NCBI GenBank assembly: GCA_043381765.1
Contig: JBHJMP010000542.1
Span: 1-45,171 of the forward strand
DNA length: 45,171 nt
From: Collodictyon triciliatum
Taxonomy: Eukaryota
Reading direction: 5' to 3'
Below the pieces are notes generated by a model. The model did no database searches and was not told the DNA's origin. It was given only the letters and a program-made list of their open reading frames with translations. Below, in pieces: positions 9,766 to 10,781 of the stretch; positions within the stretch are counted from its first letter, which is position 1, and each line of letters opens with the position of its first letter. The position numbers were made by a program, and so were the translations under genes.

Positions 9766-10781
9766 GCTTTGGAAATCCCCTGCGATGTTCTGATTCCCGC
9801 AGCTTTGGAAGGTCAAATCACCCTGGACAACGCTGACCGTATCAAGGCCAAGGTCATCGCCGAGGCTGCTAACGGCCCTGTCACAGCAAAGGCCCACGAT
9901 TTGCTGGTCAAGAAGGGTGTCGTCATCATCCCCGACCTCCTCCTTAACTCCGGCGGAGTCATATCCTTAAAATAATGCTGTCTTTCATTATTCTTCAACA
10001 TAGTACTTTCGCCAATTGTTGTATATTGTGCTTTCATATTTCAGTAAGGAGGTTTCCCTTAACCATCCAACATTGTCTCGTATTTCGAGTGGCTGAAGAA
10101 TATCTCGCACGTTCGCTTTGGTCGCCTGGTTTGTTCGTCTTCCAAGCCTGCCATTACCACCACCTCACTACTCACCAGGGGAAAGGACAAATTCTGTATG
10201 ACCACACTCAATATGATTCTTGTTAACAGACCCGTCAAGTCGAAATCAAAGCCAAGGAGGAGATTGTTGACCTTCTTGAGAACCAATTCGGTCGTAAACT
10301 CACTGCCCAAGAGAAGGTAGTATTTCCTTATTGTATATTGGGACACAAGAAGGGACATATAGATTGTAATTACTATGGGCCAAATATTAAGAAAAATTAA
10401 TTGAAATTCGTTCTGTTTGTTAGGGCGCCTTTGCTTGGGGAGCCGATGAAGAGAAGCTTGTCCGCTCTGGTCTGGAGGATACCATGATTGAGGCCTGCGC
10501 CAATGTCCACCGTGTCGCCCATGAAAAGGTCTCCACACTGGACCAGAACCTTTTGCACGAATATACTTTGAGGAATGAAAACTAGCCTTGTTCAAATATT
10601 CGTTCTGCATTGGTCTTACACAACATACCGCAGACTTTCTTATCATCCAAAAATTTCTTCTGATGTTCCCCTCTGTTCTTTTGTTTCTCGCCTCTAGAAA
10701 TGCGACCATCGCACAGCCGCTTACCTCATCTCCCTTGAGAAGATTGCCACGGACTACGAAATGTCTGGAATTTTCCCTTAA
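9766..10781 (+). CDS. Glutamate dehydrogenase (Glu/Leu/Phe/Val dehydrogenase family), C-terminal exons only
   Basis: [14 protein letters not shown]...[15 protein letters not shown]...[35 protein letters not shown]...[16 protein letters not shown]...|[27 protein letters not shown]. The N-terminal portion is absent (contig edge at 9739). Confidence 0.95.
9961..10071 (+). other. U12-type (minor spliceosomal) AT-AC intron, 111 nt, phase 0
   Basis: 5' end ATATCCTT, branch site TTTCCCTTAAC at 10053-10063, 3' end CCAAC. Removal restores the conserved GDH motif GGV-IVSYFEW. Confidence 0.92.

Follow-up and report, generated by a model that had tools for sequence, protein, structure and literature searches.

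The glutamate dehydrogenase gene fragment

The 45,171-nt stretch of DNA analysed here, referred to below as the window, contains part of a glutamate dehydrogenase (GDH) gene on its forward strand. The features of this fragment are as follows, with P0002 denoting a homologous protein of a 97%-identical relative.

9661..9738, assembly gap of 78 N, placed by the gap list immediately upstream of the GDH fragment
9739..9765 (+), 3'-terminal part of an upstream intron, ...TATTAACAATATAAAG, with an ordinary AG acceptor, right after which homology to P0002 starts at ALEIP
9766..9960 (+), GDH exon of 65 codons, ALEIPCDV..., supported by Pfam, PDB and P0002
9961..10071 (+), putative U12-type AT-AC intron, 111 nt, phase 0, 32% G+C
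10072..10128 (+), GDH exon opening with IVSYFEW, based on P0002 tblastn and the five-exon model
10129..10229 (+), GT-AG intron, 101 nt, GTTTGT...TTGTTAACAG
10230..10316 (+), GDH exon, TRQVEIK...TAQEK, based on P0002 tblastn and the five-exon model
10317..10423 (+), GT-AG intron, 107 nt, GTAGTA...TGTTTGTTAG
10424..10528 (+), GDH exon, ...VAHEK, 35/35 residues identical to P0002
10529..10697 (+), GT-AG intron, 169 nt, GTCTCC...CGCCTCTAG
10698..10781 (+), last GDH exon, ...SGIFP and the stop codon, with the coding part reaching 10778 by tblastn

The identity of the gene is established by several lines of evidence. Pfam places an ELFV_dehydrog domain on 9763-9960 (E=1.6e-21) and finds no match in any other frame or strand over 9816-10905. 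When the same exon (9763-9960) was compared with PDB, 58 distinct sequences were matched, headed by the mammalian GLUD1/GLUD2 proteins (E about 1e-18), and the alignments to GLUD1/GLUD2 terminate precisely at the residues GGV. Moreover, the spliced model carries both the ELFV_dehydrog domain and the motif GGV[T/I]VSYFEW by which a GLUD-like GDH is recognised. By its predicted product, the host gene is a nuclear GLUD-like glutamate dehydrogenase, with the AT-AC intron lying in its 3' half.

The 5' part of the gene is missing. As judged by tblastn of P0002, about 310 N-terminal GDH codons are absent from the window, with residues 1-310 of the protein giving no significant match anywhere in it (best E 0.45). 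P0002 was found to possess an ELFV_dehydrog_N domain, and the GDH portion of the window lacks that region, which would lie beyond the gap at 9661-9738. The gap is preceded, on the same strand as GDH, by an adenylate-kinase-like gene (8426-9500, +) with the P-loop GAPGAGKG and a Pfam ADK match (E=6e-8), and this gene also runs into the gap. A (AACATAAAAT)n repeat occupies about 9560-9660, between the adenylate-kinase-like gene and the gap. Either the true length of the gap far exceeds 78 nt, or the scaffold was joined incorrectly.

Removal of 9961-10071 from the reading frame

The exon upstream of the putative intron closes with CTC CTT AAC TCC GGC GGA GTC at 9960, encoding LLNSGGV. The bases that follow are ATATCCTTAAAATAA, and in frame they read I, S, L, K and a stop. 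The downstream exon begins at 10072 with ATT GTC TCG TAT TTC GAG TGG (IVSYFEW), and excising exactly 9961-10071 joins ...LLNSGGV to IVSYFEW.

Evidence on what the mature reading frame looks like was drawn from a protein collection queried with the GDH exon, in which 3805 of 3938 candidates matched with E<=0.001 and the best 120 were examined. Two of these, P0002 (489 aa; contig of 1747 nt) and P0001 (313 aa; contig of 1199 nt), are both 97% identical, and both read GGVIVSYFEW across the junction. The contig of P0002 has no room for the four introns present in the window, because its coding sequence and stop take up 1470 nt and these introns would add another 488 nt to a contig of only 1747 nt; from such lengths, we infer that the contigs of P0001 and P0002 are transcript-derived. 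A tblastn search with P0002 against the window leaves a 37-codon gap precisely at 9961-10071, and the five exons, once joined, encode 175 aa and a stop, with 170/175 residues identical to the C-terminus of P0002 in a gap-free alignment. The motif itself is widely conserved; GGV[T/I]VSYFEW is unbroken in 120/120 of the best homologues (of 3805), with T in 117 of them and I in three.

The boundaries were located with a scan of 5200 combinations, in which the last exon base ranged over 9935-9999 and the first exon base over 10020-10099. Only five adjacent offsets yield the required peptide, with terminal pairs CA-AA, AT-AC, TA-CA, AT-AT and TC-TT. AT-AC is the only recognised pair among the five, and its offset is the only one to start the intron on ATATCCTT. 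The protein of a 97%-identical relative thus provides indirect evidence that the 111 bases would be removed from the mRNA at 9960^10072. A first, sequence-only reading of this DNA had described an AT-AC intron at 9961..10071 in GDH, and its coordinates, open frame, branch position, AC end and restart at IVSYFEW were all right.

The same reading had maintained that no GT-AG alternative keeps the frame, and it was correct for the pairs it named: splicing the GT at 9958 to the AG at 10044 introduces a stop, and splicing it to the AG at 10048 or 10051 shifts the frame. As a general statement, the claim does not hold, since two of 22 GY-AG combinations (exon base 9957 spliced to 10090 or 10099) hold the frame open to ...GRL; the other 20 stop or shift. 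It is conceivable on that account that the GT at 9958 is spliced to an AG whose last base is 10089 or 10098, producing a GDH shorter by 7-10 residues, but such splicing is scarcely credible. It would delete VIVSYFE or, with the more distal acceptor, ten residues that are kept in 120/120 of the best homologues and in P0001 and P0002. Furthermore, the donor GTCATA is poor, and both acceptors fall within conserved coding sequence without a pyrimidine tract. The two in-frame pairs were rejected on these grounds.

An even more basic objection would be that the stretch is not removed at all, and that this GDH copy is a pseudogene or an assembly artefact with a 111-nt insertion. Truncation of the gene at an assembly gap, with the first ~310 codons missing, and the odd scaffold join to the adenylate-kinase-like gene would both be in keeping with such a history. 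Nevertheless, it deserves next to no credence: the five exons are intact and end in a stop at the homologous position, their product is 97% identical to that of an expressed-looking relative, and the three other GDH introns have clean GT-AG ends. In addition, a random insertion would not have placed both minor-class signals at exactly the positions that restore the frame.

Splicing signals of the AT-AC intron

Minor-class introns have the consensus [G/A]TATCCTT at the 5' splice site and TTCCTT[G/A]AC at the branch site, as given by Larue, Elias and Roy. The corresponding elements of the GDH intron are listed here.

9961..9968 (+), 5' splice site ATATCCTT, 8/8 against RTATCCTT
10056..10063 (+), branch-site element CCCTTAAC, 7/8 against TCCTTAAC
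10064..10071 (+), spacer CATCCA and terminal AC (10070-10071), without a pyrimidine tract

The termini are AT at 9961-9962 and AC at 10070-10071. The branch element belongs to a longer stretch, TTTCCCTTAAC, at 10053-10063, which stops 8 nt short of the final base of the intron. Its CCTTAAC core is exact, and one base upstream a C replaces the consensus T at the first position of the 8-mer; the sequence-only reading thus put a minor-class element in the right place but matched it to a consensus, TCCTTAAC, with which CCCTTAAC agrees at only seven of eight positions. The only exact TCCTTAAC nearby is exonic, at 9941-9948, where it encodes LLN. The candidate branch adenosines, 10061 and 10062, lie 10 and 9 nt, respectively, from the last intron base. 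At 111 nt, the intron is short like its neighbours, and it is in phase 0, which is rarer among minor introns (26% in Physarum according to Larue et al.).

With a 5' site of 8/8, a branch element of 7/8 at 9-10 nt, an AC terminus and no pyrimidine tract, the stretch 9961-10071 is probably (at roughly 90%) a classical U12-dependent, minor-class AT-AC intron that would be removed by the minor spliceosome. The U12-type identity put forward by the sequence-only reading agrees with every sequence feature that could be checked, and the junction 9960^10072 is read by the protein of the 97%-identical relative.

How much of this could arise by chance was estimated in two ways. A loose composite, consisting of RTATCCTT, CCTTRAC within 600 nt and then AC or AG 4-16 nt further on, occurs once in the window, at the GDH intron, but it is present somewhere in 195/1000 local-composition shuffles. 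The joint probability of both motifs at their fixed positions is about 3.7e-8. Since the pattern alone is not rare, the weight rests on its exact coincidence with exon edges that were set by homology, and that coincidence is far beyond chance.

Rare U2-dependent AT-AC introns exist, and the GDH intron has its terminal dinucleotides in common with them. The major spliceosome could conceivably excise 9961-10071, with the likeness to the minor class being incidental. The branch element lends itself to this, as its CTTAAC is also compatible with the loose U2 branch pattern, and TTAAC-like motifs occur near the AG of local introns as well, both in the GT-AG intron 10129-10229 (...TTGTTAACAG at 10229) and in the incomplete intron whose last base is 9765. 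The 5' end, however, is a perfect 8/8 minor-class site containing TATCCTT in full, an extended site that U2-type AT-AC introns, to our knowledge, lack. There is no pyrimidine tract from the branch to the AC, and the two motifs sit at the fixed positions for which the joint probability was calculated. Moreover, 20 introns were modelled in the window; the remaining 19 are all GT-AG and mostly have a T-rich stretch ahead of the AG, which sets the AT-AC intron apart within its own genome. These 19 start with GTAAGT-, GTATGT- or GTGAGT-like sequences or with a weaker GT, and none with a pyrimidine tail has a minor-class site. (Three GDH and four phosphodiesterase introns among them are based on homologous proteins, and four adenylate-kinase-like and eight coiled-coil introns on open-frame continuity only.) Excision by the major spliceosome is accordingly very unlikely.

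Taking the intron to be U12-dependent, its removal can be outlined from what is established about the minor spliceosome. U11 and later U6atac would pair with ATATCCTT, and U12 would pair with CCCTTAAC, bulging one of the two adenosines as the branch point. The U4atac/U6atac.U5 complex would then complete the minor spliceosome, and selection of the AC at the 3' end would depend on its spacing of 9-10 nt from the branch, not on a pyrimidine tract. Were the intron retained, translation would be expected to halt after five codons (ISLK and the stop), with loss of the last 110 residues.

The GDH intron, together with established knowledge, gives sound grounds to expect that the lineage has U11, U12, U4atac and U6atac. 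A Rfam search confined to the 45-kb window detected no snRNA, with 0 matches at the gathering score; an absence of snRNA genes is expected for 45 kb and is uninformative about the whole genome. At E<=5, the window gave five weak matches, none of them to an snRNA: they comprise miRNA look-alikes on microsatellites, plus one snoRNA and one sRNA with E>2. Similarly, Pfam searches of 281 further ORFs in the window revealed no minor-spliceosome protein.

Comparison with known minor introns

Classical U12 AT-AC introns, known from animals, plants and a range of protists, share with the GDH intron the start /ATATCCTT, a TTCCTTRAC-type branch, the terminal AC and the absence of a pyrimidine tract. As in the classical cases, a single minor-type intron is found among GT-AG neighbours of the same gene. 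The GDH intron differs from them in having C instead of T at the opening of the 8-mer branch core, and its phase (0) and length (111 nt) are further particulars. It is an ordinary example of a well-known class and opens no new question.

Larue and Roy (PMC10639083) charted minor introns across more than 3000 eukaryotic genomes, with amoebozoan counts of 90 and 265 as well as more than 20,000 for Physarum. Physarum polycephalum has been reported to carry 627 introns with ATATCCTT, an ATATCC start being one of the reported forms (Larue, Elias and Roy). Its genome, as described by Schaap et al., is similar in style to the window, with many gaps, simple repeats and introns of ~100 nt. The likeness is circumstantial, and the chance that the window comes from a Physarum-like slime mould is no better than about even. 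In addition, the branch adenosines of the GDH intron, 9-10 nt from the 3' end, are inside or just at the 9-12 nt range reported for the transformed U12 introns of Physarum.

There are, however, clear differences from the Physarum type. TTTGA does not occur anywhere in the 111-nt GDH intron, which has the classical CCTTAAC instead, and its ninth base is A rather than T. Whereas the Physarum-type introns have the transposon-like ends rtatctt...aag|ATAT, the GDH intron ends ...CCATCCAAC|ATTG. With both TTTGA and the transposon-like end absent, the GDH intron is not, by its predicted signals, of the transformed Physarum kind.

According to Larue et al., a CCTTAAC branch remains in 20/3,648 Physarum introns with a perfect 5' site, and the branch-binding sequence of Physarum U12 snRNA has been altered to fit TTTGA. 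It is possible, though doubtful, that the window comes from P. polycephalum or a close relative and that its GDH intron is among the very few keeping the ancestral CCTTAAC branch. If so, the changed U12 would still handle an ancestral-type branch site; when the changed motif of Larue et al. was paired by hand with the GDH branch, several pairs would be lost. If the source were instead a relative with an unchanged system, the intron would help to date the Physarum transformation. In either event, it would be a natural test substrate.

The intron position was also compared with 30 short GDH protein fragments from relatives, none of which (0/30) breaks after GGV or reads GGV-I-S. In five of the 30 (P0134, P0140, P0148, P0150 and P0151), homology stops after ...PDLLLNA and V-S-F follows, as it would if a GTAAGT-type intron lay three codons upstream of the AT-AC position in these five eukaryote-like sources. 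A search of the full-text literature found no link between GDH and minor introns, which is weak evidence of novelty, as genome-wide intron lists sit in supplements.

Consequences for annotation

The intron is of value chiefly to annotation. Gene prediction that allows only GY-AG introns would end GDH at the ISLK stop, shift its frame or drop VIVSYFE(WLK). It is plausible, then, that GT-AG-only gene finders would mis-model GDH, as the sequence-only reading had anticipated, by analogy with the same failure in P. polycephalum, where all non-GY-AG introns were lost from the annotation in this way (Larue et al.). A single unambiguous AT-AC intron also serves as an inexpensive sign that a minor spliceosome has been retained in the organism from which the DNA comes.

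Minor-like 5' sites elsewhere in the window

The motif RTATCCTT is present five times in the window, where 2.41 are expected, and five were reached in 7/100 shuffles. The broader motif RTATCYTT occurs 18 times on both strands against an expectation of 5.83, a number reached in 0/100 shuffles; against local-composition shuffles, the expectation is 9.17 and 1/300 reach 18. Eight of the 18 sites, including that at 9961, fall in gene models, and the remaining ten have no gene model. The sites at 647 and 31436 were rejected as donors, being located in the pyrimidine tracts of AG acceptors. Those at 42973, 29792 and 5358 lie inside GT-AG introns and were likewise rejected, as was the site at 30450, which is antisense to coding sequence. 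Several RTATCYTT sites are acceptor tracts of the form ...ATCTTTAG or ...TCTTTTTGGCAG.

Besides 9961, the only placed RTATCYTT site at an exon end is 30776 on the reverse strand, which opens an intron of a coiled-coil gene with an exon chain of 298 open codons (31627-29569, -):

30776-30707 (-), GT-AG intron of the coiled-coil gene, 70 nt, starting with GTATCTTTAG (a GTATCTTT start) and ending ...TTCTAAATTTGACAG

Its start is a minor-like 5' site, and neither a classical nor a Physarum-type branch element was found at the right distance in this intron. Across the window, RTATCYTT followed by TTTGA at the right spacing was found twice against 1.67 expected, which is no signal. Convergent RTATCTT pairs, which the transposon model put forward by Larue et al. 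envisages, were considered and discarded: the inverted match ends at the 8-mer, and the pairs dissolved on gene modelling.

Other genes and repeats in the window

Pfam identified the following additional features:

2778-3131 (-), weak match to eIF-1A
14836-15474 (+), ATP synthase e chain
18986-22947 (-), ankyrin repeats and protein-kinase exons
23440-24018 (-), helix-loop-helix protein
37067-38692 (-), MFS/OATP-like transporter

A class I cyclic-nucleotide phosphodiesterase gene is located at 102-1790 (+), with GT-AG introns at 450-656, 921-1019, 1241-1376 and 1537-1650. Its best exon is 83% identical to P0122, a Trinity-assembled protein of 599 aa from a relative, and P0121, an unspliced genomic ORF on an 884-nt NCBI contig, is 99% identical to the gene. 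No receiver domain was detected in P0122 at E<=0.001, so a RegA-like architecture is not supported. A Striatin-family gene spans 40837-45170 (-), with the Striatin domain (E=2e-13) at the end of the window and WD40 exons at 42461-42688 and 40837-41271; its introns are filled with microsatellites, and one donor was read as GTGAGA.

Two sub-threshold Rfam matches, 'mir-297' and 'mir-1277' (22615-22691 and 41142-41206, -), coincide with (CATA/TGTA)n-type microsatellites and can almost certainly be dismissed as spurious. Long simple repeats are found at 1-95, 4553-5027, 13450-13560, 29960-30075, 33215-33630 and 42830-42930, with (CTTTTT)n, AAT/AAC-rich, (ATT)n, (AAAC)-type and (CAAAAA)n being the types encountered. 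Finally, the seven assembly gaps in the 45 kb tend to sit within or beside simple repeats.
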